A DNA stretch of 58,906 bases from Stramenopiles sp. TOSAG23-6. Lineage: Eukaryota. The notes under the pieces were generated by a model. The model made no database searches, was not told where the DNA came from, and saw nothing but the letters and a program-made list of their open reading frames with translations. Where the stretch lies: NCBI GenBank assembly GCA_900128565.1, contig LT635917.1:1-58906 (forward strand), read 5' to 3'. Shown here in pieces: positions 1-58,906 of the stretch (positions are counted from its first letter, which is position 1; each line of letters starts with the position of its first letter). A program made the translations under genes and the position numbers.

Positions 1-896
1 GGCTCAAAGAAAGGCATTAAAAAAGGCTGCAGATAAAGCAGCAGAGACAGATAATACAGTACGGGAGCTTCGCAAAGACGATACAATGAAACGCCTTACA
101 AAGTTAGTTGGTGGTATCACTGATCCGGAATTTTCTCAAGCATTAGAAGATACACTTTCCACTCTAGGAAAACCTGGAGGTTACAATGGAAATCCAGATG
201 ACGTATTTGGTGGACCAGGAATAGATCCAAGTGTGTCTGAACCTACAGTGGACGCCAATATAGCAAAAACATTACAAATGTTATCTGAAGCTGGTAAATC
301 TGGAATTGATGGAATGGAACCAGCAGCAGCTGAAGCTTTAGGTGAAGACATGATGAAGAATATTATGCAAGATTTTGAACGCATGGGAGAAAAAGAAGAT
401 TTTCAAAATGTTGTAGACGGAATGATGAAACAATTGTTGGCCAAGGAAATTATGTATGAACCAATTAAAGCCATCTGTGAGAAATACCCTGAATGGTTAG
501 CTGAAAATGAACCTTTTCTTGAGCGTGTTGAGTATGAGCGTACGTTTTCATCACGATTTTTTTTTTTCATAGAAAATTTTGTACCTAACAAAAAAATTCA
601 AAAAAAAAATATTTTTTCGCAATACATGGTTTGGACGTCAATATCAATTTATTCAAAGAATTTGCGCTTGTTACGAAACTCAGCCAGATAATTTTGAGCG
701 ACTTATGGAACTAATGCAGGATATGCAGGAATGTGGACAACCCCCGGCAGAAATTGTCAAAGAATTAGCTCCAGGATTACAGTTTGGGTCCGACGGTATG
801 CCAATAATGCCTAATATGGGTCCTGGGATGCCGTCTTTCCCTCCGATGGATATGCCGAATGTCCCTGGTATGAATCCACAGTGTACCATTTGCTAG
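1..896 (+). CDS. PEX19: Peroxin-19 (5'-partial); exons <1-539, 628-896
   Basis: Frame open from base 2. Pex19 C-terminal motifs LLAKEIMYEPIKAICEKYPEWL and LMQDMQECGQPPAEIV, ending in a CaaX box (CTIC). Removing 540-627 joins the two ORFs as YER-FGRQYQ. Confidence 0.92.
540..627 (+). other. Family intron, GT-AT, 88 nt
   Basis: GTACGTTTTC...AATTTTGTACCTAAC...AATATTTTTTCGCAATACAT; restores the PEX19 frame (C|GG = Arg). Confidence 0.88.
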
Positions 897-1183
897 AATA
901 TTTTTTTTTTGCTTAAATAATTTGTTTTTATGATAAATGAAATATATTTTTTGTGTTTATAATAATATATCCACTTTGGTGAAAAAAATTCTGAAATCTA
1001 TAAAAAAAAAAAAAAAAATGTTACAAAAAAAATCACGAAAAACAAATCACAATCGCAATCCAATGACACGTGGCAAAAAAAATAAAAAAGCGCGCGAAAA
1101 ATTTCAAATCAAAAATTCAAATGCATTGTGACATCAAGTTTTCCCCCCTAAAGTAATTTATCTGTAGATAAAATTATTAAATA

Positions 1184-4192: not shown

Positions 4193-4363
4193 ATTCCAAT
4201 TTCAACTTGTATTTATATTATTAAAAGTTAACCGAAAAAATCGGTTTTGTTCCCCCCCCCAAAATATCAAAATATTTGTGTAGCTAGTTTTTATTACAAA
4301 ATAAAATAAAAAATAAAAAATAGCTTTTTGTATTATTTTTTTTTTATAATGTTTTTATAAATA

Positions 4364-5863
4364 TTAAAAAGTATTTGGAAATATTTCGTCTGAAATCGAG
4401 TCTCCTAATATGGAATCAACTCCTTTCAATTCTTTCCAGCCTCCATACTTTGCTATATAGAGTACTGCAAGTTGATTAGGAAGAGCTCTAAATACAATTG
4501 CAACATCCATTGGTGTAGACTTAAAATCCATATCCATGATTGGCAAATGAAGTATCTGTGTAGTGTCACGGGCTGTGAAGAATATTAAAAAAAAAAAAAT
4601 GTTACATACAAAATTTGGTACAAAAAAAGTTACATTTGAAATGAGTGATGAAAACGTACATTTCCCTGAAGATCAAACGGGGGCGAGGAAGAACCTAAAC
4701 TAGCCCAACTTGTGATAAAGGCACATTTCGTCTTTCCAAAAAACCCAGGGTATTTGGATGTAATTCCAGAGTATGAACCATCTTGCCGAGGAGAAAGCCA
4801 AGAGCGAACGTCTTCTGGTGTTTTGAATCCTCCTTTATCTGCCAAAATCACTCCTTCATAGTTCCCCCCGTATGTTTTGTGAAAAAAATATTTCAAACAT
4901 TTGAAATCGTTAGGTACGAAATTGCGTACGAAAAAAAAATTATAAATTTGAAATGGAAGAGGACAACATACATGTTGCATCTTGCAATTCTTCCCATCTA
5001 CTACGATAATTTATAGTCATCATTGAAATATCAGCATCACACGAATTAAGAAAATGTGATGTAATAATATCATTTGATGAAACATAAGGCACTACATTGT
5101 TCTCAAGAACTCTACTTTTTGCAATGTCAATTTGCTTTTTATCTACATAAAATGCTAGTGGACGCCCCTTTGGCTTACTAAATACACCTTGAACCATAGA
5201 CTTGATAAATGCAAGGCTATTACCATACTTAAAATCGGATTCTCCCATTAACCTTTTTTCCTGCGTTTTCTCATAATCAAATTTACGTTTAGGTATAATT
5301 TTTGGAATTGGAGATAATTCACCAGAGTCGTTAACAATGTCTGCCAATGAGTTCAAGACTTCGTAGTATGTAAAACCGTCAGCAACTACGTGGCTCATTG
5401 AAAAGATCATGGCAAAACTAGTTTCATCTATTGGAGCCAATAAGCATTTAGTGACAGGCGTTTGATGTTGGAGAATAACTTTCCCCTTCCCTACAGCTAA
5501 TTTTCTGCTCAAATCGACGAGACGAGAATATTCCGTTTTCATACTTAGATCTTGTACTGGAGTTTCTTTGATAGTGAGAATTTTCTCAACGTGAAATCGT
5601 TCAATCACAGAAGGATAGACAAGTTGAACACTTTCGCCTTTAAATTTACATAAAGTTCCACAAATCCAAGGATTTTTTTCAGCAACGAGATACAACCGAT
5701 TTTCAATGTGAGTTATGACGTTGTTAATATTTCCTCTAAAAAATGTTATAGTGCAAATTGGTGGATGTTTAAATTGTCCTGTTGCGCCTGAACTAAGTTC
5801 TCTCTTAAATAGCGGCTCTGCACAGTCATAAGGACAATTTTCAATAGAAATACCGTTTCCCAT
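4364..5863 (-). CDS. CoA-dependent (HxxxD) acyltransferase-like protein; exons 5863-4972, 4871-4660, 4567(or 4555)-4364
   Basis: SHVVADG HxxxD motif; three ORF fragments joined in frame by two family introns. Confidence 0.65.
4568..4659 (-). other. Family intron, GT-GT (92 nt) or GT-AG to 4556 (104 nt)
   Basis: GTACGTTTTCATC...AAATTTTGTATGTAAC...AATATTCTTCACAGCCCGT. The first AG is out of frame; both the positional end (4568) and a later AG (4556) are in frame. Confidence 0.7.
4872..4971 (-). other. Family intron, GT-AT, 100 nt
   Basis: GTATGTTGTC...TTTCGTACCTAAC...CACAAAACAT; joins DAT-YGGNYEG in frame. Confidence 0.82.
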
Positions 5864-6125
5864 TTGTTACTATGAAATAGAAATCACGTAGTAGTAGTTA
5901 CCAGTAGTATGTAGCAAATAATGACAACAAAAAATTGTTGCCGTTTGTAAAAAAACGCAAAACAAAACGCCACGTGTTTTTTCTCGATTCAGTTCAAAAG
6001 GAAACACATGAGTCCATAGTACATGGTACAAATAGGTACTGCAGTGGAATACATACTACGAGATTTTGCCTCTAGCTAGGAGCCAGTATTCTCCGTCGTG
6101 AATATTTTAGTTGAATATTTTGACA

Positions 6126-8675: not shown

Positions 8676-8717
8676 TCTAGCATTTTATAAATAATATATT
8701 AAACAATTAATAGAATT

Positions 8718-8820: not shown

Positions 8821-8896
8821 AATCTTGGTTTTCATAAATTTGAAAGTATAAATTGTTGACACCTAGTAGAAGTTACTACATATAATCATATCATAG

Positions 8897-10526
8897 TTAT
8901 AGTGTTTGCTTCTCGGAATGTTGTTTCTGTTGCTCTTGAATTATCTTTTGTTGTTGTTGTTGTCTAATCATCAAATACTGTGAAAAAGTATGTCAAATTT
9001 GTTAGGTGTTAAGTACAGAATTTGATACAAAAAACATTTTTAAAAAAATTAATGATGAAAATGTACATGTTTCTCATCCGATACTTCAAAACGTTTTCAA
9101 ACAGTACAATTGATTTATGAAGTCTATCGCGCGAAATTTGATCTAAATTAGGAATATTTAGTTTTTTTATTAAATCTTGACGCAACATCTCGAGTTTCTC
9201 ATTACTCATATTAGCAGTGGCATTTAAAGTAGCTTGAGACAAATGTTTAGGATTACTGATTCGAGGATCGGGAAGTCTTTTACTTGCCATCTTCATTTGT
9301 TCTTTTTGATACTCTAAATGTCGCACAATATTCTGTGCATTCTGCAAGCGAGCTTCAGCAGCACGCACAGCAGAATTACACATTGCCATGTGTGCTTGAA
9401 GTTCTTGCTGGCGTTTCTTCCTGTGTAAATATGTATTGTGAAAAAAAATATTTTTAGAATGTTTTTTATTTTTTTTGTTAGGTACGAAATTAGGTACGAA
9501 ATTTTCATCGTAAAAAAAATACATTTGAAATGAATGATAAAAACGTACATACCACAGGGTCAAAGCAATTCTCTAAATTTGCTTTTCTATTATATAGCTG
9601 TTTCTGAACACGAGAAATTCGTTTAGTTTTCTTATTCACATCGTTGCTCTTCGGAATCACATTTTCTTGATTACTCAATCCCGTAGGATTGACACTGCTA
9701 TTATCTCTATGTAAGAATAATCGTAGACTTTCTCTATATTGAATTTTACTTGGAGCTGTAAGTGCAGGTATTTTGGAAAATATTTCAAAAAAAAATTGTT
9801 AGGTACAAATTTTCGTACGAAAAAAAATGGAATTTGAAAAAAACTAAAACATACAGTAAACTCCGAAGCTCCGCGAGAAAATCGGATAAGATTTCGATCC
9901 CGTTCTAAAAGACATGTCAAACGTTTTGCAGGGGGTATGTCAGTATCAGGAACTGTTCCATTGACTTTATCCCATGATCTAGAGAATCTAAACGCTTCGT
10001 CAGTATATCCAATTTCCCTAGGTCGTTTTTCTAATCGTCTACTTCCAGATGCACCTGCCTTTTTACCATCAACTTCAGTGGATTTACCCTTACTCTTACC
10101 GCGACTTTTACCTTTACTTTTGGTCTGGCGCTTTGTCTTTCCTCCTGTTTTTAATCCAGCTCCACCCTGCACACTTCCCCCTCTATCAAGTGATTGACTC
10201 ACTTGAGCTAATTGCTGCGCGCGAGCTAAAGCAGCTTTATCTAATTGTTCTCTTGCCCATTGCATTAATCTAGCCCCATATTCATACATTGTCCTTAACA
10301 TCGGATTAGTTCCATGTAAGCACGCTGCGTTGAAATCATTGTGAAAATCGTTCAACGTTCTGTATCCGCCGTGCTGATTAAGTCTCTGTCTCATTGTGGT
10401 GAGATTCGGGGCTCTTGAGCGTGTCTGTTGATGGACCCCCTTAATATGAAGATCCCACCGACTAAGACGATCAAGACATAGTTTTAATACAATATGAAGA
10501 GTACTGTAGTCGCTTTCAGTTGACAT
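8897..10526 (-). CDS. Uncharacterised protein with a degenerate bromodomain-like N-terminus; exons 10526-9855, 9765-9549, 9430-9067, 8972-8897
   Basis: PNLTTMRQRLNQHGGYRTLNDFHNDF resembles the bromodomain PMDL..I..Y....F..D segment. Continuous frame after removing three family introns; the last exon is less certain. Confidence 0.6.
8973..9066 (-). other. Family intron, GT-TT (94 nt) or GT-AG to 8978
   Basis: GTACATTTTCATC...CTGTACTTAACACCTAAC...TTTTTCACAGTATTT. The positional end gives a Gln-rich 25-codon tail; the AG gives an almost immediate stop. Confidence 0.65.
9431..9548 (-). other. Family intron, GT-AT, 118 nt, with duplicated branch motif
   Basis: GTACGTTTTT...AATTTCGTACCTAATTTCGTACCTAAC...CACAATACAT. 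The downstream CAG would create TGA. Confidence 0.82.
9766..9854 (-). other. Family intron, GT-CT, 89 nt
   Basis: GTATGTTTTA...AATTTGTACCTAAC...AATATTTTCCAAAATACCT. This end opens a 217-nt exon in phase with the next intron; the downstream CAG leads to a stop at 9675. Confidence 0.8.
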
Positions 10527-10786: not shown

Positions 10787-12675
10787 ATGTATATACCCAA
10801 AGTAGCAAATATTAAAAAGCTTGTTGAAAACCCAGCATGTGTAGTCCAAGATATGATTGACGGATTAATTGAACTCAACCCCAATACCCGCCGTTTAGAT
10901 GGTTTCCCTGAAATCAAAGTTGTTGTTCGTGCTGACTGGTGTATTAAAAACAACAAAGTTGCAATAATATCAGGTGGTGGTAGTGGACATGAACCCGCGC
11001 ACATTGGCTTTGTTGGTCAAGGAATGTTAACTGCTGCTGTAGCTGGTGAAATATTCGCAAGTCCCTCAGCGGATGCAGTATTGGCTGCTATTCGTGCTGT
11101 CACTGGCAAGGCTGGAGTTTTACTCATTGTGAAAAACTACACCGGGGACCGCTTAAACTTTGGTCTTGCGGCTGAAATGGCAAAGGCAGAAGGATACAAT
11201 GTTGATATAGTGGTGGTACGTGACGATGCAGCGCTAGAAGGAGATAAACAACGGGGTATTGCAGGGACAGTATTAGTTCATAAAATTGCTGGGGCTTGTG
11301 CTGAAGAAGGCAAATCACTCGCAAGAGTGCGCGAAGTAGCCGCAGAAGCTGCATCACGGGTATATTCAATGGGCGTTGCTCTCAGCACATGCACGAAACC
11401 GGGACAAAATATAAAAACACAGGAGGATAGATTAGCGAATGGAGAGATGGAGCTTGGTATGGGTATGTATGTTTTATTATTTTCAATTTCGATTTTTTTT
11501 CGTACGAAATTTTGTACCTAACAAAAATATTGAATGTAAAATATTTTTCAAAATACATACACGGAGAGCGAGGACGAGGTCGTTCGAATATGCTCCCAGT
11601 GAGTCGTATTTGTACAGTTCTATTAGATACAATATTAGAAAAAATGGAAAACACGACATTTGGGTCAGTTGTTTTAATAAATAATCTAGGAGGTGCAACC
11701 GCGATGGAAATTGCAGTTGTTGCTAAATTTCTTATGGCAGATTTACGAAGCAGAGAATTTCGAGTTTCTCATTTAATTTCTGGTCGATTGATGTCTGCAC
11801 TTGACATGCAAGGTGTTTCTGTCAGTATTCTTCCTCTATCTCGTGAAACTGCGTCATTCATTGAAAGTTACACAGATGCTCCTGGTTGGCCACGAGTTGC
11901 TAAGTTAGCGTCTTCACAGCGTTGTCCTCAAGAAAATTCAATTTCAATTCCAGAGTTCACTACTACAGAAAATATGTATGAAATCCAAAATATGGAAACT
12001 ATAGCACCTCATATTGAATTATTACAAAAAACAATTCGTGCTGTCGCTGAGTCTGTTATATCAAAAGAAGCTATGTTGACACATTGGGATGGTATTGTAG
12101 GCGATGGTGACTGTGGTACTACTTTAAAATTTGGATTTGAATCAGTACTCAATGATTTACCTAGCTATCCTTTGTTATATCCTAAAGGTGCATCTTTAGT
12201 TATGAGAGCTCTTAGTAGATCTCTTAGAGGTATGGGTGGCTCTTCCGGGGCTCTATATGCTATTGGTCTCTCTGCTGCAGAACGTTCGATGTCAAGTGAC
12301 GAAAATCTAGACGAAACAAATATGCAAATGCAAAACTTTTGCTACTGGGTCAGAGCACTTCGCTCAGCGATTCATGCTATAATGTCTCATGGTGGAGCTA
12401 AACTCGGTGATCGCACAATGTTGGATGCTTTATTGCCAGCCATAGATGTTTTGGAGTTGGCAATTGAAAGCAATAATACTTCAGACTGGAAGAAAGCTGT
12501 TAGTGCTTCGGCATCTGCGGCTGAAATTGGAGCGCATTCCACCAAATCAATTCATATTGCTGGTGCTGGAAGGTCCGCATACATTGAACAATCTCATTTA
12601 GGAGGAATTCCTGATCCTGGTGCTATGGCTATTTCCTACATAATGAAAGCAATATCAGACTCTCTTATTTTATAG
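10787..12675 (+). CDS. DAK1: Dihydroxyacetone kinase / triokinase (DAK1+DAK2 domains); exons 10787-11466, 11559-12675
   Basis: SGGGSGHEPAH, VKNYTGDRLNF, ELGMGIHGE (across the junction), GDGDCG, GDRTMLDAL, GRSAY, PDPGA. Confidence 0.95.
11467..11558 (+). other. Family intron, GT-AT, 92 nt
   Basis: GGT AT|GTATGTTTT...TTTTGTACCTAAC...AAAATACAT|A CAC GGA GAG restores GIHGE. Confidence 0.93.
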
Positions 12676-15900: not shown

Positions 15901-17565
15901 GGCTTAGTGCAGCGAATGAGAGAATGCTAAGAAAACGCGTTGCCAAACGTTGGAAAAATCAACATATGACGAAAATGAGGGAAATGTGGAAATCTAATAC
16001 AGAAAGCATTAAAAAAAAACAGTTGGAAGACGCTCGAAAACGCAAAGAAGCTGAACGACAAAGACGTATTGAAGTAGCAAATCGTGAGCACAATGAATGT
16101 TTACAAATGAGAATAGAAGAACATGCACAGTGTAATTGTGGTGATTTGTTCTGGGGCATCGAATTACTAAAGGAAATGATTAGAGATGAATTTGCTGCAG
16201 CACAATCTCATAGAAATAGAATTAATCAAAGAGTCAAAGAAAAACAACACGTTAAATGGCATCACGAATTGCGTCGCAGAAAGAAAGACAAGGCAGAGAA
16301 ATTGGCTGCTGTGTACGCATCGCGACATCGTAATTATATGAATAGATTCTGGAAATCTAAGAACTCGGCGGATATCATTGCTCATAATTGGACTCGCCAA
16401 AAATCAGATGAGAAGATAATAAAAAAACTAGTTTCTGGACCAGTAGGTTTCATTATTCCCATAGATGAACCTTCCCCATTAGATGCGATTCTACCTGATC
16501 TTAAAGGTCGCCCAATGACTGTAATTCCACAACGTGCACGTCGATTACAATCAGTTCACAATGAAAATGTTGATGTCTACTTACCCCCCTTACTTGCAAT
16601 TACACGTTCTTCTCCTAACCCGGCGGACCTGCCTCCAGACACGGTTAGAAGTATCGAAAAAGATGTGTATAGCCCTAGAGTGCGGAGTAGACGAGGTTAT
16701 ACCACGTACAGTAGAAACCCTAAATGGAGGGACGGATTTCGAAGCAGAGCTGAAACATCACGAAAGTCCAAAGATGTTAAGAGTAGGATGTTACACAAGA
16801 GAGCAGCAACATCACGTGCTAAACTCAACACAACCGCGACATTAAAGTCTCCACCGGCATCGCCCACAGCAATACCACAAAATATAGATCTTTCCGTAGA
16901 CATTCCAAAAGAGCTTAAAGCTTTTGTTGAACAAGTAAATATAGTTGTCAATGAAAAAGGAACTCTTTTTGCTGCGGAGATGAATTCTTTACGCCATGCA
17001 TTATCAGATGCTGATGAAGATCAAACACAAACTACAACAGAAGCACAAATTATTAATCAATTGCGAAAGCAAGGATTAGGTATACCACGTAAGTTTGTCA
17101 CTGCAATGTTTGTATCATTAGCAAAGCTAACACATAAAAGTTCAGTAGAAGAAACGCGCATTCAGTATAATAGCCTAATAGACTGTATGAGTAAATTTGT
17201 GGTGCCGATTTCACCAAAACAAAAGAGAAACCTATTTTTGAAAGGTTTCTCAAAAATGCAGTTCGCAGTTAAAAAGGGAGTACATGTACATTTTCAAAAT
17301 TGAATTTCGAATTTCTTTTTTTGTACCAAATTTTGTACCTAACAAAAAACAATTGAAATATGTTTTGACAATACATGTCCCACCAAATGATAAATTGAAT
17401 AAACGTATTTTCAAAATGAAGTATGCGCTTGCAATCAAAGCAGGTATGAAAATAGATCATTCTGATAGCGCTAGTGGTGATGGGGTAAGTAGTATAGAAT
17501 CTGATAGTGGATCATTTTTTAATACAGTGGATGACTTACAAGCTAAAAAAAATAAAATTAAATAA
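12972..17565 (+). CDS. Large WW / IQ / coiled-coil / two cNMP-binding-domain protein; exons 12972-17285, 17377-17565
   Basis: WW-like GWTE..YYIH..T and GWIQ..YFIH..SWDRP; IQ-like IQCMFRMH and CQARFRG; cNMP-like FFFIMKGEG..GNYFGE and FYIIESG..SQFFGQRA. Confidence 0.75.
17286..17376 (+). other. Family intron, GT-AT, 91 nt
   Basis: CAT|GTACATTTTC...TTTTGTACCTAAC...GACAATACAT|GTC; no AG near the 3' end; joins two ORFs in frame. Confidence 0.8.
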
Positions 17566-17779: not shown

Positions 17780-19852
17780 ATGAGTGCTAACACTAATACC
17801 GCGTCGGCTGAAGCAAAATGTATTTCTTTGCCATGTTGGCCTCTCGGTGTACCACATGTTGAGAGCAGAAAGCAGCAGCCGACTCGTATAGACTTGCCTG
17901 ACACACGTAATAAAAATATACGAGCTTCTTCTTTAGATATACAGCACGATATTCCAAGACTACCTAATGCAGAGGAAGAATTTCTCCTTGAACAGGGCAT
18001 CTCACTCCCCGAAGTTGATGAAATAAGCTCTGATGTAGACAATCAAACCTGTTCATGTTGGCCACCTGGTCAACGAGTTGAATCACAAGCTGTTTCTCCA
18101 AATCCAGCGAATATTCATCAAACAAAAGACGTTGTATATAAAGGCATTCCATTGAAAGAGAAAGAATCTTACACAGATTCAGATGGTGTCGCGAAAGTTC
18201 AAGAAGAATTGTGGTTAATATTTACTTTTTATGCTATCCATGGGAAACCGCAAAAGCCCCATATGATGACAGAAAATGAATGGATTCGATTTCTTGTTGA
18301 CTGTTGGTTACTTCCCATAAGTTCGGTGAATAAAAAGTCGCTGCGTAAACGACGCTCTGTAAAATCTCAAAACTTAATGAAGGGAAAAGGATATCCCAAA
18401 TTATTGAGTCCACAGGTGGCTTGTTTATTGTATAAACGTGCTGTAAATTATCGATCCGACGGTATGTACGTTTTCATCATGAATTTTAATTTTATTTTTT
18501 TCGTACGAAATTTTGTACCTAACGATTTTTTATTTTATTTTTTTTCACAATACATGTATTTTCAAAACTTTTTGAATGCTTTGATATTCATTGGTTCGAA
18601 ACTTTATAGTAAAGAATCCAGTGACAATGGTCTTGGAAAATTAACTGCAAATGGTGCATTTTCATTAATCCTCCAGCGGCATGTTTTACCGAAATGCCTC
18701 GCACGGCGTAGAATTATTCCAGTCGTTCATGTACATTTTAATTTTAATTTCGAATTTATTTTTTTTTTCGTACCCAAATTTGTACCTAACAAAACATTTG
18801 CATATAAAATATTTTTCACAATACATCATATTCTTGCATCACACGATGTGACACAACTTTATCGATACTACAAAAATCCCCTCCTAGAAATATTTAATTT
18901 GTATACAGTGGATAAGGGAGAGTTTTTTTCTCGTATTGATGAGAGATACAAAGAAAAAAGTACAAAAAATGGTATAAAATTTAAATTGGGTGTCGGCGTG
19001 AGGACTATGGGTAACGAGAAATGGTGGAAATTTTGTAATGACTTTGGCTTATCTAAATTACTATCCCACTGTAAACTGAATGAGATTTATCTTAATGTGG
19101 GCTCCATTGTTCAAGTAAAAGACAAAATTGTACAGGAAATGTTTTTTGAAGGATTTTGGGAAGCTTTCATTAGAATATCTCAGTTGGTATATGATGACCC
19201 ATCTGCTTCATTTGGTGTTTCTTTTATACGCCAAATTCGTGCAGTATTTCTCATGATGTGGAGATCTATTGAAGAAGGTGCAAGAAATACCAGGAGAGAG
19301 TATAATTCTATACGTTGTGGAAGAAATTGTTCGGACGAAGTGAAACCTTTAGCTGCTAAAATATTTGGAGATGCATTCTTGAATGATTGGCGATCAACTA
19401 ATTTTCATGATTATGGCGAATACAAACGCCTTGGAGTTTACTCTTCGGATTGTGTTCTTTCAAGAATGACTGAAGATAATGCTCGTGTATCACTCAATAC
19501 TTCTAATATGATAAAAGAACAATTACTAATTTCTGGGCGAAATAAAACAAAGCAGATCATCGAAGACACAAAGTTTCAAAATGATTTACAAATAGGATCA
19601 GACGTTGAGCTAGCACGTTTTGTAGAGGATAGAAAAAATAGTGTTTCCGAAATAGCCAACTTTTCAAAAATAATCCCGAATGATAAATTATCGAATCACA
19701 ATGTAGATAAAAGAGGTAGAACAAAACTTGTAAATCATTCATCAAAGCAGCGACAGCTTGAATCTGTACGACTTGTAGGTAGATTACCCGGTAGAAATTT
19801 TACACCTCTAACTGAAACGGATAAAAAGGGACGATGGTCTATTTTGACATAA
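17780..19852 (+). CDS. Uncharacterised protein with degenerate EF-hand-like helices; exons 17780-18465, 18556-18730, 18827-19852
   Basis: Long ORF with repeated L..IF..Y / M...EW..F..D segments; two stop-free family introns inside. First ATG at 17780. Confidence 0.6.
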   Translation: MSANTNTASAEAKCISLPCWPLGVPHVESRKQQPTRIDLPDTRNKNIRASSLDIQHDIPRLPNAEEEFLLEQGISLPEVDEISSDVDNQTCSCWPPGQRVESQAVSPNPANIHQTKDVVYKGIPLKEKESYTDSDGVAKVQEELWLIFTFYAIHGKPQKPHMMTENEWIRFLVDCWLLPISSVNKKSLRKRRSVKSQNLMKGKGYPKLLSPQVACLLYKRAVNYRSDGMYVFIMNFNFIFFVRNFVPNDFLFYFFSQYMYFQNFLNALIFIGSKLYSKESSDNGLGKLTANGAFSLILQRHVLPKCLARRRIIPVVHVHFNFNFEFIFFFVPKFVPNKTFAYKIFFTIHHILASHDVTQLYRYYKNPLLEIFNLYTVDKGEFFSRIDERYKEKSTKNGIKFKLGVGVRTMGNEKWWKFCNDFGLSKLLSHCKLNEIYLNVGSIVQVKDKIVQEMFFEGFWEAFIRISQLVYDDPSASFGVSFIRQIRAVFLMMWRSIEEGARNTRREYNSIRCGRNCSDEVKPLAAKIFGDAFLNDWRSTNFHDYGEYKRLGVYSSDCVLSRMTEDNARVSLNTSNMIKEQLLISGRNKTKQIIEDTKFQNDLQIGSDVELARFVEDRKNSVSEIANFSKIIPNDKLSNHNVDKRGRTKLVNHSSKQRQLESVRLVGRLPGRNFTPLTETDKKGRWSILT
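18466..18555 (+). other. Family intron, GT-AT, 90 nt, in-frame and stop-free
   Basis: AT|GTACGTTTTCATC...TTCGTACGAAATTTTGTACCTAAC...CACAATACAT|G. Confidence 0.8.
18731..18826 (+). other. Family intron, GT-AT, 96 nt, in-frame and stop-free
   Basis: CAT|GTACATTTTA...AAATTTGTACCTAAC...AATATTTTTCACAATACAT|CAT. Confidence 0.8.
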
Positions 19853-19873
19853 TAAACTTTATTTACATATTAA

Positions 19874-34464: not shown

Positions 34465-37400
34465 TCATTCCCAATCACTTCCCTCACTCTCTCCATCGTC
34501 AGAAAAATCACTTTCTGCAACATCTGAATACTTTCCTTCATCCTCATCATCATCAGAATCACACAAATTTGTGTAACTGATAGGTTTACGATTTCGACCA
34601 CCTCGCCGCGATGATTTCTCAGTATCCATTGATCTTTCATCAATAATATCACCATCGTCATCATCGATGACGTCATCAACATTAAATTCTTCTTCACTAG
34701 AAGATGTATTTTGGAAGAATATTTCAATTTGTTTTTCGTTAGGTACAAAATTTTTATAAAAAAATAAATTCGAAATTGAAAAAAAAATAAAACATACATA
34801 ATATTTCAATAGATTTCTTTTTTGCTACTTTCTTTTTTGATTTCACTTTGACTCTTTTTGCCTTTGGAGTCTTTGCTGTTGGTGATTCAGTTGATACATT
34901 TGGTTTCTGGTACAATTTTACTCGTTCAATCAAATCGGATTTCTTACCTTTTGTTGATATGCCATACTCTGCACAATATGTTTTCAAGACTGCAACTTTC
35001 ATTTTTTTCAATTCACCATTAGTGAATATTTTTTTCTGTTTAAATCCATCGCTTTGCTGAGACTTTGACTGAGGAGTATGAATTGTGAAAAAATACTATG
35101 TAGAAAAAAATCGTTAGGTACGAAATTTCGTATGAAAAAAAATTAGGTAAAAAAATTATCATGAAAACGTACATCCGCCTTATCAGTTTTAAAATTACTG
35201 TGCGATCGCTTTGTTGGCTTCGAAATCATTGGTGAAAATGTGTTTTCAGACACTGCAATTTGAGCCATTCGCCTGTTCTATGAAAAATATTTTTTTTTTT
35301 TACCGAAAATAAAAAAAATTGTTAGATACGAAATTTTCATAGTATAATAAATCAAAATTCAATTTTGGAAAACATACATGGATAATGGAAGATCATTGAA
35401 GTCTGAATCATCGGAGGAGTCATCGGATATATTCACGGTTTTTTTCATGATTTTTTTTGATTTTTCAGGATTTGGAATTGAAAGCGATGAAATATTAGAT
35501 GTTGGAGATTTTTTCGTTATTTTTGGTTCTTTTTTTACTTTTGGTTCAAAAAATTGAGAAATTGGTTTTGTGTTGGCTTTTGCTTTTACATTCTCGTTAC
35601 TTGCTTCTTCTTTTACTTTCTCTTTTTTTACTTTTGGTTTCTTCTTCACGACTCTCTTGCGTCTTTTCTTTTTATTACCATTTTGAGCAGCTTCCTTCGC
35701 TTCTCTTTCTGCATCTGCATCGGCTTGCATAGCATCTTCAAAACGTATAATAGATGCTTCTAAAGCAATGAGATCGGCCTCCCATAATTCCTGAATAGAA
35801 GTTTTTTGAAGTAATCGCATTACAGCAGTTTTTTCATCAAGTTCCTTTTTCAACTTTTGGACTTTTTCGACAGTAAGTGACCGAATATTCATATTCAGCA
35901 TATAATCGTACCCACGCTCACGAGTTTGCTTTTCTTTTTCTTCATCATCTTTCTTCTTTTCCTTCTTTGAAGCTGGTTGAATAAGCACATAACCATTAAT
36001 CTTCATTTCAGCCACGAGTTCGGCCTCTTTCCTCCTGGAAATTACAAGTTTACCTTCAACGACTTCAGTCACAAAACGCATTTGGTTTGCAAGACGTGTG
36101 TGTTCAGCTTTCAAAGTCTTTAATAAATGGCGTTTGCGGTGTCCATACATACGTAAACGTGTTTTATAGAAGCGGTCAATAATACTTGAAATAGTTTTAA
36201 ATTTCGTGACTTTTTCAGACACAGTTTCACTTTCAATCTCTGGCATGGCCAAAGGTGCATTATCAACGATCATAGAATCCATCACAGGAACAATAGCCGG
36301 AGCTTCTTCATTTTCATTAAATTCGGTCGCTGGTGGAAGACCCGGTTGGACTAGAATCATATTCGAATTGGAAAGTTTTGAAGTCATCTTAAAATCACTT
36401 AAAAATGTTGCATTTTTCAATGGTTCTTCTCCGTAATCTACAGTAGGTGCTAGAGTTATAGTGAAACTGACGGTTGCATCTGTATGGTTTTCGTTATAGT
36501 CAACAACGAGTTGCTTTCTAGGCTTACTATCAGTCTTTTTCTTTCCCTTCGATTTCGATTTTGATTTCGATTGATTCTTTTCAGGTTCGGATAAAACTTC
36601 GAGTAATTCTTTGAATTTTTGAGTCCACATTCCGACAGGAAGTTCAGAAATATGAAGGATTCCTCCAGGACCTGGTTCGATCACTTCGACCAAGCCTTTA
36701 CACATAAACCCAAACGCATTCTTTTTCTGAAATACTTCTGTCGTGCCTTGAAAACCACGATACCAGGGAACAAGGTTTTTAGCTACAGTAATAGAATCAC
36801 CTCCTGATAGTAATTGACGAAGACAATTGATAATATCTTTGGGATTGTAATTAGGAATTTCTGTAGACCAACCCGTACCAATACCAGCACATCCATTAAC
36901 AAGCACAAGTGGAATAACTGGACAATAGTATGAAGGTTCAACACTTATACCGTCATCATCAAGGTAATCAAGTATAGCATCATCATCGGGATGAAAAATA
37001 TGTCTTGTAATTTCAGCTAATCGAGTAAAAATATAACGAGGTGACGCTGAATCTTTTCCACCTTGAAGACGTGTACCAAATTGACCACCAGGATATAAAA
37101 GGTTGAGATTATTAGAACCAACATAATTTTGTGCCATACCCACAATTGTACCCATTAACGACGCTTCACCATGATGATACGCAGCATGCTCAGAAACGTA
37201 TCCTGCAAGCTGTGCTACTTTCAGCTCTTTGGTTAATTTACGTTTAAAACAAGCAAAAAGAACTTTTCGCTGAGATGGTTTGAGTCCATCAATGAGGTTC
37301 GGGATGGCTCGTTTTACAGAAGCCTGAGAAAACAAAACAAATTCCTTATTGAAAAAATCTTTGTATGTCATTTCTTTCATGGAAAAATCTACGTACGTCC

Positions 37401-39788
37401 CAGCTTTCACTGCACCAATCCAATCCTTCCTTGCATGTATTTTGGAAAAATATTTCAAAAAAAAACAATTAAATTTGTTAGGTACAAAATTTCGTATGAA
37501 AATGTTTTTTCGAATTAAAAAAAAAATAAAACATACATCAGCATTATCTTTTGAAAAGGCAAGTTTAATCAGTTCAGCATCACCATCAATCCATTTGAAT
37601 GGGATGACATTAGTATCAAGATTAGCAAAATATTGCTTTGCTTCTTTAGAAGTTGAAGTACCAAGACCTTTATAATACTTGATATGCCAACCTTTCTGTT
37701 TTGGTAAAGTTTCATTGCCTTCCTCATCAATTCCAAGAATATTACGAGACTTCCAAGTCTCATACTCAGGAACTGTATGAAACAAAATTTGCTTCTTATT
37801 TCGTGTTACTTTTACAATCGGTGTTATAAATTCTTTGATAAAACCTGGAACTTGCATTAAAGAGGGATTAAACCAGTGTAAGAAATTCAAAAGTAGCCCT
37901 TTAATATGAGATCCATCGTAGTCTTGATCAGCCATAATTAAAATTGAGCCATACCGAAGTTTCTTAATATTTTCTGTGTCATACGAGACATCTCGTCGAA
38001 TTCCCATAATTTTAATAATGTTTTGGATTTCATCATTATTTGATACCTGAGAATGCTTTGCTTCGCGTACATTTAAAGGCTTCCCTATAATAAAAAAAAT
38101 GTGTACAGTTTTGAAATTTGTTAGGTACAAAATTACATACGAAAAAAAAATCAAATTGAAATGATAAAAACATACCTTTTAAAGGAAAAACACCATAAAA
38201 ATCTCTGCCTACAATGGAAAGACCAGAAACGGCAAGTGTTTTTGCAGAATCTCCCTCAGTCAGAATAAGCGTACATATGTAATTTTAGGAAAATATTTCA
38301 AAAATTGATTTTTTTTGTTAGGTACGAAATTTTGTATTAAAAAACATGGAAATGTATGATGATGAAAACGTACTGATAACTCTTTGAAGTACCAGCCTTA
38401 TTTGCATCATCTAATTTCGGAATCCCACGAATTTTTTTCAACTTTGTCGCTTGCTTACCAACGTTACGAGACCGAAAATTAGCAAATTGCATTGCCGCAT
38501 CCACGATTCCCATACTCTTTGACACAACTTTCTTCAATATTGCAGGAGACAAAATTGCAGAAGAACCGAAATCTTTATGCTGAGTAGTCAGAGCTTCTTT
38601 TGTCTGTGAATCAAATGATGGATTTTCGATAAGGCAATTGATAAAAACACAAATGAAGTTTTTTGTTGCTGCTTTACTTAACGCTTTGGCTTTCTTATTT
38701 TTTCGTGCACATTCTTTTTGAATAACAGAAACGAGTTGATTCACAATAAAATCAACATGAGTTCCACCTTTAGTAGTAGCAATACTGTTCACAAATGAAA
38801 CTTGTTCGAAACGTGTTCCATCACTAGGACAAATCGAAATTTCCCAACGATCATTCAAGCGTTCGTGAAGCATTTTCGTAGATCGGCCCTCTGCAGCCAA
38901 CGTCGAGAGACAGGATCGTGAACATAATTTCACATAATCTGGAAAGTTTTTGATGTGAAGTTTCTCGCCATTAAGATACACACGAACAGATTTATCAGTA
39001 ACACCGGCTAAATCATAAGTACGTTTTTTGAAAATATTACATATTTCTTCATTTAATTCAAACATTCCAAATTTTTCAAGGTCTGGTTTGAAAGTTATCT
39101 TTGTATACGATTGAGTTTTATGAGCATCTGTGATTACAGGCGACTCTGTCTTTGTCATATTGTTACGAAAAACTTGAACGTATTTCTTTTTCAATTTTGA
39201 GTCAACTGTTTCAACAATAAACTTTGTGGAGAAAATATTAGCAAGCTTAGCACCAAAGCCATTTCGACCGCCTGTGACTTTTTTCTTATCATCGTTGTAA
39301 TTTGAACCAGTAAGAAGATTTCCAAAAATTAATTGAGGTACATACATTTTCTCTTTCTTATGCATCTGTACAGGTATTCCCTTCCCATTATTGGCGACGG
39401 AAACAGTCCCAGACTCGCGGTTAATGCAAACTTTGATCCACGTCATCCCTTCTGGATCACGCTGTTTATTGTCAGCTGCATTTACGAGAATCTCATCAAA
39501 TATCTTAAAAAGAGCTGGAACATATGTACACGTCTTGCGAACTAGGCGACCTCCTTTATCTGCTAAATCTTCAAAATTATCTGCTGCAGGAACGTCCGCG
39601 TTTTCACTTGATGTTGGGAGAACAGCGGGGACATCCGTAAAAGTCCACGTATCATACGTAGTTGGTTGAACACTACCAACATAAGTATCTGGGCGTAATA
39701 GAACATGCTCTCGCTGATTTACTTTTTTGTAAATATTTTCTACCCTATTTGGAGTCAATGTCTGGCGTCTGTTGAAGTTTTCCGACAT
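34465..39788 (-). CDS. TOP2: DNA topoisomerase II with C-terminal SAP domain; exons 39788-38374, 38276-38176, 38084-37537, 37434-35378, 35272-35173, 35077-34798, 34703-34465
   Basis: EHVLLRPDTYVGS, DEILVNAADN, GGRNGFGAK, TEGDSAK, PLKGKPLNV, DQDYDGSHIKG, YYKGLGTS, DGLKPSQRK, YHHGE, SPRYI. Six family introns restore a continuous frame. Confidence 0.97.
34704..34797 (-). other. Family intron, GT-AT, 94 nt
   Basis: TAT|GTATGTTTT...TTTTGTACCTAAC...CCAAAATACAT|CT opens the acidic TOP2 tail; the nearby TAG gives another frame. Confidence 0.8.
35078..35172 (-). other. Family intron, GT-AT, 95 nt (in-frame CAG 9 nt downstream also possible)
   Basis: GAT|GTACGTTTTC...TTTCGTACCTAAC...CACAATTCAT|ACT. 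Confidence 0.75.
35273..35377 (-). other. Family intron, GT-AG, 105 nt
   Basis: AT|GTATGTTTTC...TTTCGTATCTAAC...AATATTTTTCATAGAACAG|G; the second AG is the in-frame one. Confidence 0.82.
37435..37536 (-). other. Family intron, GT-AT, 102 nt, in-frame and stop-free
   Basis: Removal converts FSKDNAD[34 aa]ARKDW into the conserved FSK..AD.RK.W helix. Confidence 0.9.
38085..38175 (-). other. Family intron, GT-AG, 91 nt
   Basis: AAAG|GTATGTTTTT...TTTTGTACCTAAC...ATTATAG|GG restores PLKGK. Confidence 0.92.
38277..38373 (-). other. Family intron, GT-AT, 97 nt
   Basis: CA|GTACGTTTTC...TTTCGTACCTAAC...AAAATTACAT|A restores SYQCTLILTEGD; contains an in-frame stop. Confidence 0.92.
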
Positions 39789-43340: not shown

Positions 43341-44559
43341 ATGAATAACTCTTTTCATGAGAAACCCTCTCTGTATACTGTAGCAACACATTCTGTGGAA
43401 AGTTTAGAAAATTTTTGTAGTACTTGGGATAGCTCTAGTGATTGCTTTCCTGATAAGCTTCTAGCTCCACTTCCTTTGACAACTCCAAATCCAACCAAAA
43501 TCCAAAAAAGAAAACAACACGATGACACATCTTCGTACACTTTTGAAGGGGAAAACATATTGAAGACGAAAAATGTATCACGTCGTCTAGAAAAATGTGC
43601 TTCAAAACTTAAAATACCTATAAAATTTTTNTCTCCGGCCGCTTGGCGTGGTGTTATGCGGAATGTACCAGCCTCGTACCGTGATGAATCACGTAAAGCT
43701 TTGGCAAAACAAACTTTTATGAACACAATTGTTGCGAAAGCATCTAGTAAGGAGCATGTTATTTTAATTTCCAGAAATAAGCCTCGAATGGTAGGTACTG
43801 GTCGCATTCTTGTCCTTGTTGGGCTAAAATACCGAGGAAACGTTGGAAGTATTGTCCGGTCTGCCGTGCAAGCAAACGCATTTGATGAAATATATTATGT
43901 GGAAAATAGATCGTCAGATGAGGAGTATCTCAATTTGACAACTCTTGTGAAGCGAAAAGATGGTAAAACTGGAGAGGATGAATCTGAACATGGTATTCCT
44001 GGTTATGAACTCAAAACAAAAAAACGAATGCGGGTGACTGATAAAGAAGTGGACTACTTTTCTATTTTTAATGCTCCACTGATTCCGTTTCGAAGATTTA
44101 AATCCGTGGGTGATTTTATGAGTGTTGCCTCTAATGAATTAGTGACGGTAAACAGTTCTTGTAATTCTGGTGTTTCTAATATTCCGAATGAAAACTTAGT
44201 TACAATGAAAACTACAAACGGGCGGGTAATGGTTGCATTAGAATGCTGTGACTCTGCTTTCGACATGTATGTTTTCAACGTTCAAAATTTCAAAAGCAAA
44301 TTGTACCAAATTTTGTACCTAATTTTTTTTTTCTTTAAATATTTTCTCAAAATACATTTACAGTGAAGATGCTAAGAATATTTTAGCCAAGGAAGATTTG
44401 TATCTTGTCATGGGTGCTGAAGATATCGGTGTGCCCATGGAAATAATGAATTCTTGTAGTGCTTTAGTAAAAATACCAGCATTGTCCGCTTCAGTCAATG
44501 TTTCGTGTGCTTTTAGTGCAGTACTGACTATTCTTAAAGACTTAGATTACAATAAATAA
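43341..44559 (+). CDS. SpoU/TrmH-family (SPOUT) RNA 2'-O-methyltransferase; exons 43341-44266, 44358-44559
   Basis: GNVGSIVRSA; second exon LVMGAEDIGV and VKIPALSASVNVSCA. Confidence 0.85.
44267..44357 (+). other. Family intron, GT-AT, 91 nt (in-frame CAG at 44363 also possible)
   Basis: CAT|GTATGTTTTC...TTTTGTACCTAAT...AATATTTTCTCAAAATACAT|T. Confidence 0.78.
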
Positions 44560-54157: not shown

Positions 54158-56973
54158 ATGCTGCCTGGCACCCCAAGGGAATTACGGATTGCCATTTCAA
54201 ATGCAAAAAATAAATTGAGTGAATTACAAACAAATTTGCCGGATAGATTAAAAGAGCTTAAACATTTAAAGAATGAGTTATCCAAGGAGCAACTACAAAC
54301 TGAAGACTTGTGTGAAGACTTCTTGGATAAAACACTTGAAGCAAAGTCAAAATCAGCAGAGAAGGCTAAAGTAAATCGCGTAACATGGGATTGTCCTCGT
54401 AGAAGAATGAAAAATCGTTGGATTGGCACAGATCCTCATCCAAAAAGTGTTGATGCAATTGTAAAGAAAAAAACTGAGGAGACTATAAAAATAATAGAAA
54501 GACTCCGCTCAGAGCTATCCTTTTCACTATCGCGTGAGAAGGGAGTCACTTTACGAACGATCAAAATGATGGAACAAATTCGTGCTAGTATTAATTTGCA
54601 TAATATTACTAGAAGAAGTACTTTATTGACTCAAAGATTAGCTGACCTTTCTCAGAAAAAGGAGAACGATGATAAAAATGTAGAATTATCTAAAGCCAGT
54701 TCTTCAGACTATCATATCGAGACGTTAAAAGATAGAAAATATGAAAACCATTGTGAAATATTATTAAGGTATACTGAAATGCTGGACGATCCTATTTTCA
54801 TTGTGTTGTCAAGATTTGACGAAATAAATGATGAATGGGAAGAAATAGGACGAAGTGAGGTGTCTTCACAAGTTGACGGCACATCTCCGAGCTTTCTAAG
54901 AACAACTGTAATACCGACTGATGGTCGATCATACCCAATTAATATTAGTTTATATAGCATACAAATGGATGATAGGATTGCCATTAAGTTCGTAGGTTCT
55001 ACAGAAACCTCTCTTGCTGAGCTTGTGGATGATAATGGTCGTATGTTTTCATCATAATTGTTTTTACCTAAATGTTTTTTTCGTACGAAATTTTATACCT
55101 AACGATTTTTTTTTCAAATATTTTTTAGCATCGCATATGAACTGCATTTGTTTATTTATAAAAGAATTGGTGTCGAAGATTCGAAATCTGGAATCCTTTC
55201 ATTGCGTCTTTTACCAAACATGTTTAAAAAAATAAAGCATTACGACTTTGTTGGAACTCATCGAGAATGTACGTTTTATTTTTTTTTTCAATTTCGATTT
55301 TTTTTTCGTACGAAATTTTGTACCTAACGATTTTTTTTGAAATATTTTCCCAAAATACATGTGCAACATTTTGTTTATCTATACCAGATGTTGAACAGAT
55401 TACCCCGGGACTTCGTTTAATAGAACAAACTCAAGAATCTCCATTTTCCATCATCGTACCATTCCAACTTCTCGCAATATTTATCGAAAGGATAAAGAAA
55501 ATGATTGGATTCTTGAAAAGTTCAAATTTTGAAAATGTAACAACGAAACAGAAAATTCAAATTTCTGTAACTTTGAAACATCAATCAAATTTATTACAAG
55601 AATATCAAAATTATCTAAATGAATTAAGCGAATATAAACAACCTTTTCTTAAAACTGTTGATTATATACAAAACAAAACAGCACTGCGATTTGTTCCAAC
55701 AAATTGTCATTTAAATTCTATGCTACTTATTAATGGTAGTAACACAGAAACTATTTGCACTGTCACAGCTGGATTTCCTGCTGCTCATTCAGTAGGATTT
55801 CGTACAGGAGGTCTCCTTTCCCTCTGGGAGAAATTTCATGAAGCATCAGAAAAGTATAAAGATAAAGATGTCTTCAGTATCGGAAAAGAAGGACCATCGT
55901 ATAAAATAGACAAAGAAGTCTCAATAGCTAATATACATGATCTTGCTACACAAAGCATCAAAATAGCACGGCGTAGGGATGTCGTGTTTTCTCAGGCAAT
56001 GTCCATATTGATTTCAAGTTTTCAAGCACAGCTACGAGTGATGTCAGAAAAATCAGATTCATCGTATGCACGGTGGTGGAAGCGGCTGGTAGATGTTGGG
56101 TTTCTCATCCATTTCAGTACTTTTATTGAACTTGATGAAGACAGCAGAGCTCAACTGGAAGACATTGTAGATATAGTAAACTGCCTTCAAAATGTTCACA
56201 TACTTGTAACACAAAAAGAAGCACCAATGAACAGTGGTATTTGTATTCAATGCAAAAAAAAAGATTACGTTATAGAATTTTGGTCACCGGAAATAGATTG
56301 GAGTCGAGTTCCACATAAATATTTAAAAAGTCACCGAATTTCTATATTTCCAGTTCTTACAGCTCTAAATGTACGTATTGATAGGCTTGGCAAACATGTT
56401 GAAGCTTCTATGCTCTTGCAGAAAATTAATGAGACTGCTTTAACAGCATTAAAAGACTATCAAGATCAGATTCTGGAAGCAAATATTGGTGTAGCGGTTG
56501 CTGCTATGTTGCAGCCTAACTCGCATGGTATTGTGGAAGATGAAAAGTCAAGGAATGAAAAGGTACAATTATTAATTACGGAAATGAAAAATATACCAAA
56601 GCAGCCAGTACATAATTCCAAACAGACGTTTCGAGATTCTAGTGAATTACACGACGATGTTGTCGACTCTCTAATATTATTTCAAAATATAGCAATTCAA
56701 AGTGATTCAGGTCATGTGATTCTATGTGTAGATGGCATTGACATTTCTCACATGGTATTAACATTAGAGAATGCAGTATTTTTAGTTGAAAAGTATGGAC
56801 TATCACCAGAAGAGTTTAGTAAAATAATGACAGCGATAAGAAGTCGAGGTGTATCTCCTACAATATGCGAAAAAAATAGAAATTTACCTTTTTACAGATT
56901 TAGTCAGGATACCTCAGAGCATTTACCTCCATTTTTACGACCACCGAGAGAATCAATAAAGCAAAGTTCATAA
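54158..56973 (+). CDS. Inositol polyphosphate 4-phosphatase-like protein (C2 + INPP4 domain) with degenerate catalytic motif; exons 54158-55040, 55137-55268, 55361-56973
   Basis: C2-like EIGRSEV..SPSF; INPP4-like FVPTNCHL, GFPAAHSVGFRTGGL, DVVFSQA, VTLE-like LTLE; CVDGIDI in place of CKSAKDR. Confidence 0.75.
55041..55136 (+). other. Family intron, GT-AT, 96 nt
   Basis: C|GTATGTTTTC...TTTTATACCTAAC...AATATTTTTTAGCATCGCAT|AT; the TAG at 55128 is out of frame. Confidence 0.8.
55269..55360 (+). other. Family intron, GT-AT, 92 nt
   Basis: AAT|GTACGTTTT...TTCGTACGAAATTTTGTACCTAAC...CCCAAAATACAT|GT. Confidence 0.85.
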
Positions 56974-57654: not shown

Positions 57655-58843
57655 TTAATATTTATTTTTGAGAATTAAAAGCCTTGTCCGTCTTTGGTCC
57701 ATTGGAATAACTTCCCGCAAAATTTCTTGCACTCGCACAATAATCGAATCTTTATCATACAGTACTGAAATTGAACCAGCTATACAGACTTCAAGATTAT
57801 TACAACTCTTATTGACACTTTTCTTCGAATCTTTTATCGGTTTTGTCGTTGATTTTGAACGTTTTTTTTCATTCTCTTTTTTTGCCTCTTTCATCTTTTC
57901 GTCGTGACGCATTATACAATCTTCTCGAAGTCTACGAAGAATGTCATTGGCATTTTCACCATTGGAAAGCATGCGGAGTCGTGGCATTCCACGTTGAAGC
58001 AATTTCTGGGCTGCTTTGGCACATGTGGGGCAAGTCACGTCCAGAACGATGGTGTCTATTGTGCCTCTATATAAGGATTCCTCTCCGTTTGCGTCTACAT
58101 GTTTGACTTCACAACGTTGTCCACTCTCAAAACCATCCTGTTTGAGTAAAGCTATTTTATACGTATCATCCAAGGCCAGTTTTAATGTATCGTCGTAATC
58201 TCCACGTACTTCACGACCTCTAAATATCTTTTGTATTATAATTGCTTTATCGTTTTCCATTTTGCGTTTTTCTTTACATTTTCTAAATTCTATACGTCCA
58301 CATTGACCACGGTACAATCTCTGGGTAATCATTGCTGATTTATACCGTCCTTCAGAACGGCGTTTTTTTTGTAATGCGTTTAATCGACCAATTTTACCTC
58401 GTTGTACGGATTGTATACGAACTGCTGATAGAGTGTGAAGTTCTGGTGTTGGTGGAGGAATTGCAATGCACTCGTCGCCAACTTTCTGTGCAAATCGCGT
58501 TGCATTGATTGCATCGAAGCATTCTTTAGCTAGAGCTTCCTTCCCAACACTTGCAAGTGACCACATTAGTGTACCTTCTGCACGTTTGACCAAACGCCAT
58601 GCCTCGTCGATTGATGAATGTAGTCTCATTTGATTTGGTTTGTGTTTTTGAAGATAAACAGGCATATCATTAAAGATACTTTCTACTTGACGAAGAATTC
58701 GTTTTGTAGGTGTTAAATCATAAAGATCGATATCTTTTCGTAAAATTGAAACACGAGTTGTGCATTTAACTATAGTATTACTACGCCGCAACAAGGAAGT
58801 CTGAAGCTTCATTTCAGTGCTTACATCTGCTTCATTGGTTTCG
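57655..58843 (-). CDS. IQ-motif protein, 3'-terminal exon (5'-partial)
   Basis: Three IQ-like motifs (IQSVQRG, TQRLYRG, IQKIFRG); frame open up to the family intron at the window edge. Confidence 0.7.
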
Positions 58844-58906
58844 ATGTATTCTGGAAAAATATTTCAAAAAAAATCTAAAAAAAATTGTTAGGTACAAAAT
58901 TTCGTA
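58844..58906 (-). other. Family intron, 3' part only (ends CCAGAATACAT)
   Basis: TACGAAATTTTGTACCTAAC...AAATATTTTTCCAGAATACAT; truncated by the window end. Confidence 0.75.

Follow-up and report, generated by a model that had tools for sequence, protein, structure and literature searches.

A probable GT..AT intron in Pex19 and its introner-like family in stramenopile DNA

The AG that closes introns at their 3' end is among the most constant signals of eukaryotic genes, and to our knowledge genomes dominated by another 3' dinucleotide are almost unknown outside Fritillaria. Here we report on positions 540–627 of contig LT635917.1, an element that interrupts a Pex19 gene, as a preliminary description made from the letters alone had observed; the whole stretch of DNA analysed (58,906 nucleotides (nt)) is called the window below. 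Our preferred reading, to which we give a probability of about 0.8, is that the element is a U2-type spliceosomal intron of Pex19, that it belongs to an introner-like family and that it is cut before the GT at 540 and after the AT at 627. Sixteen copies of this family were placed in coding sequence, comprising 14 GT..AT introns, one GT..CT intron (9854–9766) and one GT..AG intron (38175–38085, in TOP2). The wider result is a GT..AT introner-like family in a stramenopile that is modelled wrongly in public annotation.

The nearest known parallel is found in Fritillaria, a genus of larvacean tunicates with 3'-AT introns. Introns there end in AT more often than in any other way, at 44% in F. pellucida and 34% in F. 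borealis, and the last three intron bases are "almost invariably" YAY, which also often stands just before the 5' site (PMC13326754). The same report holds the major spliceosome responsible, suspects a transposon origin and proposes adaptation through divergent U2AF paralogs and changed small nuclear RNA (snRNA) methylation (PMC13326754). The window resembles this system in that the last three intron bases are CAT in 14 of the 16 coding copies (the exceptions being CCT and TAG), that a T-rich tract is kept and that TAT or CAT directly precedes the GT in 8 of the 14 AT-type copies. The window departs from this system in the 5' end, which is GT in 16/16 copies here and mostly AG in F. borealis, and in the host, a stramenopile protist and not a chordate. 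It also differs in that one homogeneous family makes up essentially all introns visible in the window, because the other overlapping pairs of open reading frames (ORFs), tried as further introns at 25.6 kb, 27.7 kb, 17.55 kb and 34.4 kb, proved to be separate genes.

Introners, which are transposon-like intron families, have been described from Micromonas, Aureococcus and many aquatic eukaryotes (PMC9860276, PMC12130899, PMC11282704). Surveys of introners allow GT, GC, GA or AT as the first two bases and AG or AC as the last two, and one survey dropped families with non-canonical sites beyond its confirmation (PMC12130899). Judged by its sequence, the present family, with copies of about 90 nt, is introner-like: many similar short copies lie in unrelated genes of one marine genome and carry their own splice signals, the ends show a short inverted similarity (GTAT..ATAC only) and the flanks possibly show a 2-base-pair (bp) repeat. 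Unlike the surveyed introners, the family has AT at its 3' end, 3 of 14 flanks do not match a target duplication and no autonomous element was seen.

Two further systems invite comparison. In Amoebophrya the majority of introns are non-GT-AG, repeated intron families occur and direct repeats overlap the intron borders; these introns are described as having no dinucleotide signature, and inverted repeats of 8–20 nt form a hairpin that joins the intron ends (PMC7789003). A marine protist host and a repeated family of non-canonical introns are common to both. Unlike in Amoebophrya, however, the ends are uniform here and the predicted folds are weak (minimum free energy −3.6 to −12.2 kcal/mol), with pairs between the 5' and 3' ends absent in 9 of 16 copies; a hairpin-guided nonconventional intron of the euglenid or Amoebophrya type was rejected on these grounds. 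In animals, GT-AT introns are rare single exceptions of U2 or U12 type among hundreds of thousands of introns, one of which, a U2-type GT-AT intron in DGCR2, has a good 5' site and pyrimidine tract and is conserved between human and mouse (PMC1557818). The terminal dinucleotides are the same as ours, whereas in the window GT..AT is the dominant intron class. Our literature searches returned no report of non-AG introns in marine stramenopiles (MAST) or other stramenopiles, and in the available portion of a MAST single-cell genome paper introns are mentioned in the methods only (PMC5778133).

The window is compact eukaryotic DNA (GC content 0.31–0.41) with long open frames in the standard genetic code; Rfam and tRNA scans of it gave no matches. 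The Pex19 gene opens it with the following features.

2..539, plus strand: Pex19 exon, ending TAT GAG C in phase 1; the 5' part of the gene lies beyond the window start.
540..627, plus strand: Pex19 intron in the GT..AT register, 88 nt, starting GTACGT and finishing ATACAT.
540..548, plus strand: 5' splice-site motif GTACGTTTT; the family consensus, from the family alignments, is GTAYGTTTT.
582..589, plus strand: branch-site-like box TACCTAAC, with the putative branch A at 588, 39 nt from the intron 3' end.
609..627, plus strand: T-rich tract and terminal CAATACAT; no AG lies from the branch box to the exon.
628..896, plus strand: last Pex19 exon, beginning GG TTT GGA and ending CTIC and a TAG stop.

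Both exons match the Pfam family PF04614 colinearly, at profile positions 64–170 for 2–539 (E = 1.6e-18) and 178–248 for 628–896 (E = 1.7e-11), and the gap from 170 to 178 is accounted for by four more exon-1 residues, exactly one junction codon and two exon-2 residues. The product therefore has the Pex19 domain and, as CTIC followed by the stop, a CaaX-like box at its C-terminus. Homologs reached 65% identity, and a search for a protein fragment of the same species across the junction gave no match above 77% identity among those listed. A search for an AG acceptor between the branch-like box and exon 2 found none; the nearest downstream AG (657–658) lies 31 nt into the exon in another frame, with 18 open codons after it. 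A canonical acceptor is thus excluded unless the gene is dead.

The bases before the GT at 540 are GC, so that, as the preliminary description pointed out, an AT repeat does not mask the junction here; for 11 of the 14 GT..AT family introns the preceding exon ends in AT. We shifted both Pex19 borders together from −3 to +3 and compared the products. Register 0 (GT..AT, 540–627) gives the junction codon CGG and the product VEYE-R-FGRQYQ, and register +1 (TA..TG, 541–628) gives an identical mRNA with the same codon. Register +2 (AC..GG, 542–629) gives CGT, also Arg, and +3 gives Arg-Ile. On the other side, registers −1 and −2 (the latter GC..AC, 538–625) give Trp, in VEYE-W-FG, and −3 gives Ala-Trp. 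The enumeration reproduces both products named in the preliminary description, YE-R-FGRQYQ for GT..AT and YE-W-FG for the 2-nt upstream shift.

Which residue belongs at this position was read from two sets of homologs. Seventeen Pex19 homologs were collected, of which three shorter than 230 amino acids (aa) were removed, and the junction column of the 14 full-length sequences aligned holds R in 7, K in 5, N in 1 and S in 1. A profile of these 14 scored the Arg product at 390.1 bits and the Trp product at 387.1 bits. An exon-2 search of 1.84 billion representative proteins listed 150 matches, 149 of them new; one longer than 600 aa was removed and 148 were aligned. The 119 that cover the junction column contain R 74, N 15, K 15, S 6, Q 3, A 2, I 2, G 1 and P 1. 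In the combined 133 homologs (R 81, K 20, N 16, S 7, others 9) Arg is the commonest junction residue and Trp never occurs. The GT..AT reading of the Pex19 intron is thereby supported by comparison of sequences. We also considered a ciliate-type TA-bounded eliminated sequence from 541 to 623 and rejected it; its removal keeps the frame and adds two residues absent from the homolog alignment, and the genetic code is standard.

Family introns in two other conserved genes, TOP2 and the dihydroxyacetone kinase gene Dak, constrain the register further.

38277..38373, minus strand: TOP2 family intron, GT..AT; the exon ends CA and the copy is hence register-informative (Q versus I before CTLILTEGDSA).
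38085..38175, minus strand: TOP2 family intron, canonical GT..AG; its removal restores FPLKGKPLNVREA.
37435..37536, minus strand: TOP2 family intron, GT..AT; the exon ends AT and removal restores ..ARKDW.
11467..11558, plus strand: Dak family intron, GT..AT; the exon ends AT and removal restores GIHGE.

At 38373–38277, registers 0 to +2 place Q before the Toprim motif CTLILTEGDSA, −1 places L, −2 and −3 place I, and +3 destroys the Cys. Among the 109 of 120 homologs that have the motif, the preceding residue is D in 65, K in 15, Q in 8, E in 6, N in 5, H in 5, A in 3, M in 1 and R in 1, and never I or L. The claim that this intron behaves as the Pex19 one does, with SY-Q-CTL for GT..AT and SY-I-CTL after a shift of −2, was thus borne out, and homologs favour Q over I. 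Removing 37536–37435 restores ARKDW, which matches the x-RK-x-W found in 110 of 120 TOP2 homologs. Dak limits shifts in the other direction: at 11467–11558 registers −3 to 0 encode the same protein with GIHGE, +1 to +3 give MH or MY, and Ile stands at the junction in all 112 homologs (of 120) that have the motif E-x-G-x-G-?-HGE-x-G. Since upstream shifts are excluded in Pex19 and TOP2 and downstream shifts in Dak, GT..AT would be the only register left if the family is cut uniformly, and on these sequences it is the only one that fits the Pex19, TOP2 38373–38277 and Dak introns together.

The RNA evidence comes from four seawater metatranscriptome runs that contain parts of the window, whose contigs we aligned to 1–20000. 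It concerns one family copy.

17286..17376, plus strand: GT..AT family intron with the 7-nt repeat TACATGT on its flanks, spanned by an RNA-library contig.

In run X4, a poly(A) metatranscriptome, one contig passes directly from 17280 to 17372, leaving out 91 nt, with a shorter side of 49 nt. The 7-nt repeat leaves eight possible registers for this joint, among them GT..AT (register 5) and AT..AC (register 3); not one of the eight has an AG end. At Pex19 the frame and the conserved residues are restored in silico, and apparent removal at the RNA level was seen only for this sister copy, 17286–17376. The register of Pex19 rests on comparative evidence, because no listed contig spans its junction; an exact 22-mer ending at 539 likewise had no match in the metagenome collection. 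The A/T homopolymers of the introns (553–610 and others) drew hundreds of unrelated contigs, which raised depths into the hundreds and created false joints over long distances.

The family was found by a motif scan followed by alignment of 11 copies, and a profile of those 11 was run on the window with nhmmer. The profile hit 22 places in 59 kb at E ≤ 3e-8, of which 11 lie outside the seed (E = 3e-8 to 2.9e-15); the Pex19 intron, itself one of the 11 seed sequences, scored E = 2.2e-18. The resemblance is not due to chance. Copies lie in Pex19, Dak, TOP2 and at least eight other ORFs, and all 11 seed introns join open frames. The shared parts follow the order GTAYGTTTT, TTTCGTACGAAATTTTGTACCTAAC, GAAATATTTTTCCAAAATACAT. 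All 16 coding copies begin GTAYRT (GTACGT at 540–545 in Pex19) and all contain a CTAAC or CTAAT box, the nearest of which lies 33–47 nt from the 3' end and is followed by a T-rich tract. The family thus carries the 5' GTRNGT consensus of U2-type introns and a YTRAY-type consensus (the putative branch) upstream of a pyrimidine-rich tract; the departure from the U2 type is at the 3' end, where the Pex19 intron, like all but one of the coding copies, lacks the terminal AG. Coding copies are 88–118 nt long, with multiples of three not over-represented, and their mean pairwise identity is 0.71 (range 0.54–0.85). The three AT-type copies whose exon does not end in AT are Pex19 (GC), TOP2 38373 (CA) and 55041 (TC); in the other 11, and in the CT copy, the flanking dinucleotide equals the terminal one. 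A full family element was sought in the metagenome collection with an 18-nt core and was found at none of 66 loci, all of which scored ≤21 bits, versus 29–73 bits for the 22 copies in the window.

Independent support for the AT end exists for five copies: Pex19, Dak and two in TOP2 by homology, and 17286–17376 by RNA. The remaining coding copies, and one cut by the window end, are as follows.

18466..18555, plus strand: GT..AT, exon ends AT; an in-frame AG lies 54 nt downstream and the acceptor is assigned by family position only.
18731..18826, plus strand: GT..AT, exon ends AT; splicing to the next AG would break the frame and truncate the product.
44267..44357, plus strand: GT..AT, exon ends AT; with an in-frame AG 6 nt downstream the acceptor is ambiguous.
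55041..55136, plus strand: GT..AT, exon ends TC; the gene is without homologs and the intron is deduced from the frame only; the next AG lies in another frame and would truncate the product.
55269..55360, plus strand: GT..AT, exon ends AT; an in-frame AG lies downstream.
35078..35172, minus strand: GT..AT, ending TTCAT; an in-frame AG lies 9 nt downstream.
34704..34797, minus strand: GT..AT; the next AG lies in another frame, which stays open.
9766..9854, minus strand: ends CT, as does the upstream exon; the family-position acceptor is in frame (from coordinates and the ORF list, by hand).
9431..9548, minus strand: GT..AT, 118 nt long, its branch box duplicated; use of the next AG would shift the frame and truncate the product.
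4872..4971, minus strand: GT..AT, ending AAACAT; an in-frame AG exists, but splicing to it runs at once into a stop.
58839..58906, minus strand: 3' part of a 17th copy, cut by the window end, with ATACAT before an ORF.

At 9854–9766 the family-position acceptor is followed by 86 open codons, versus 26 after the next AG, which is out of frame and truncating. This CT/CT copy is the sole hint of a 2-bp target duplication instead of a fixed AT. At 55041–55136 an AG lies 8 nt before the frame-keeping CAT acceptor, and its use breaks the frame, with a stop after 35 codons; either this AG is bypassed or the 132-nt exon 55137–55268 is skipped, the joint from donor 55041 to acceptor 55360 also being in frame. 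Two copies, at 4573–4659 (−) and about 8980–9066 (−), have CACAG near the 3' end where their siblings have CACAATACAT, and the exon still ends in AT; donor 4659 has three candidate acceptors (4573, 4565 and 4556), and for donor 9066 the frame test listed none. Four further copies or fragments are in untranslated regions, intergenic or degenerate: 8718–8792 (+), 26557–26626 (+), 29839–29929 (−), in which AT replaces the 5' GT, and 34415–34462 (+).

Under the preferred reading, the Pex19 mRNA would carry an Arg codon composed of C (539) and GG (628–629). Each copy would bring its own signals, namely GTAYGT, the branch-like TACCTAAC, a T-rich tract and, in place of the (Y)AG of ordinary introns, (A)CAT. 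The major spliceosome would remove these introns, with U1/U6 recognizing the 5' end and U2 the branch, both presumably in the ordinary way, and the second step would accept A at −2 and U at −1 instead of AG. A G(+1)–U(−1) contact in place of the usual G–G contact is a possible route; alternatively, an altered 3'-site factor may be involved, by analogy with what has been proposed for U2AF in Fritillaria. The exon-final AT that mirrors the intron-final AT would lie outside the intron. One possibility is a 2-bp target duplication, of which splicing would take out one copy together with the element; the other is a preference in insertion or splicing, comparable to the AG|GT..AG symmetry seen in ordinary introns. 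We argue that the 3' AT belongs to the element because three exon flanks do not match it.

An improbable alternative is that the borders lie two bases upstream, so that the Pex19 intron would be 538–625 (GC..AC), a member of an AT-AC-like family with a constant ..ATAC end, and Pex19 would carry Trp. A at +1 and C at −1 form an established compatible pair of intron ends, with which PMC1557818 is consistent. Eleven of the 14 AT-type copies can be read as AT..AC with unchanged mRNA, and the CT/CT copy 9854–9766 would end in AC too; however, neither the Trp that this reading requires in Pex19 (0/133 homologs) nor the Ile in TOP2 (0/109) is seen, the 5' ends of GC, CA and TC in three copies would leave no constant first base, and the conserved GTAYGT would be displaced two bases into the intron. 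Cuts one or two bases downstream of the preferred ones (TA..TG, 541–628, or AC..GG, 542–629) would likewise yield Arg in Pex19 and Gln in TOP2 and are permitted by the repeat at 17280–17372, but we consider them very unlikely: in Dak the I-H of GIHGE, invariant in homologs (112/112), gives way to other residues in registers +1 to +3, the terminal bases would vary with the exon and the GT of a perfect GTAYGT would be split. The branch box of U12-type introns, TCCTTAAC, lies close to the 3' end, and their 5' consensus is RTATCCTT. The family has GTAYGTTTT and a branch box 33–47 nt from the 3' end, so that removal by the minor spliceosome is most improbable, even though GT-AT is listed as a rare U12 subtype in animals, with seven cases (PMC1557818).

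It is also highly improbable that no non-AG splicing takes place, whether the gene is a pseudogene or keeps the insert, the AG at 657–658 is used, or the expressed copy lacks the element through polymorphism or excision at the DNA level. The absence of a listed RNA contig over the Pex19 junction and the origin of the single RNA joint from a diverged strain would fit such a scenario; yet the frame after 628 encodes a well-conserved Pex19 C-terminus with its CaaX box, the route through 657–658 stops after 18 codons, several conserved genes, at least Pex19, Dak and TOP2 (the last at two AT-type introns), would need to be broken together, and the copies keep intact splice signals. Several observations nevertheless count against GT..AT splicing of Pex19 and its family. 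The Pex19 profile separates Arg from Trp by just 3 bits. The TA..TG cut (541–628) yields the same mRNA, so that it is rejected only by assuming that the family is cut uniformly, and AC..GG yields Arg as well. No contig over the 539/628 junction is among the matches listed, which end at 534 and resume at 664. The X4 contig differs from the window at 4 of 167 nt; it therefore represents a related strain and could derive from an intron-less allele and not from spliced RNA. For five of the 14 AT-type copies, among them those at 18466, 44267, 55269 and 35172, an in-frame AG 6–54 nt downstream may serve instead, and the CT/CT pattern at 9854–9766 is explained equally well by a constant ..AC end plus a 2-nt duplication and by GT..CT.

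The DNA is that of a stramenopile and not of a tunicate, and the source label of the best matches suggests MAST-3. The splice pattern had prompted us to consider a Fritillaria-like tunicate host; this was rejected, as the relatives of TOP2 and Dak are stramenopile, algal or plant and the top hits bear a MAST-like label. The best TOP2 match (P0018) and a top Dak match (P0140) both have the source label eukprot GSMAST32.ASY1.ANO1.*, and the other named TOP2 relatives, at 37–46% identity, are mostly stramenopiles and green algae. A giant-virus origin was considered after Atlas put the TOP2 fragment 35362–38178 (−) near Nucleocytoviricota clusters and was likewise rejected, TOP2 in IMG/VR being only 35–41% identical and Pex19 being without a viral relative.

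These two matches also show how the introns fare in public gene models. P0018 agrees with the spliced TOP2 (35362–39842 (−)) in 1184 of 1381 alignment columns, with 7 mismatches and 190 gap columns, and is evidently a gene model of the same DNA because there are only 7 mismatches. It reads into the 38373 intron and skips CTLILTE, loses A-R-K at the 37536 intron and is without other conserved stretches, for example the segment carrying DGLKPSQ. P0140 (Dak, 10712–12672 (+)) runs from GMGMY into RGRG and loses IHGE. Since both mis-splice family introns, this intron type went unrecognised in the public models, which thereby lose catalytic or otherwise conserved motifs (IHGE in Dak, CTLILTE and RK in TOP2); for the same reason a GT..AT rule is needed to re-annotate the protein sets of this uncultured lineage.

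Taken more broadly, we lean somewhat towards the view that a free-living marine stramenopile, MAST-3-like by source label, uses CAT and not YAG as its main 3' splice site, that one introner-like element with perfect 5' and branch signals filled its genes, that this arose independently of Fritillaria and that public gene models are systematically wrong at its intron borders. The family would amount to a natural experiment, being near-uniform, with a canonical 5' site, branch and T-tract and the last base alone changed (CAG to CAT), and with AG-ending siblings in the same genes as CAT copies. Such a system makes it testable which spliceosome component reads or tolerates the 3' end, and whether or not a U2AF changed as in Fritillaria is involved.

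Elsewhere in the window, the assembly has a single N at 43631, and 45227–53848 (−) is, without any family intron, one open frame of 2874 aa with CLU and laminin-G-like domains and leucine-rich repeats.

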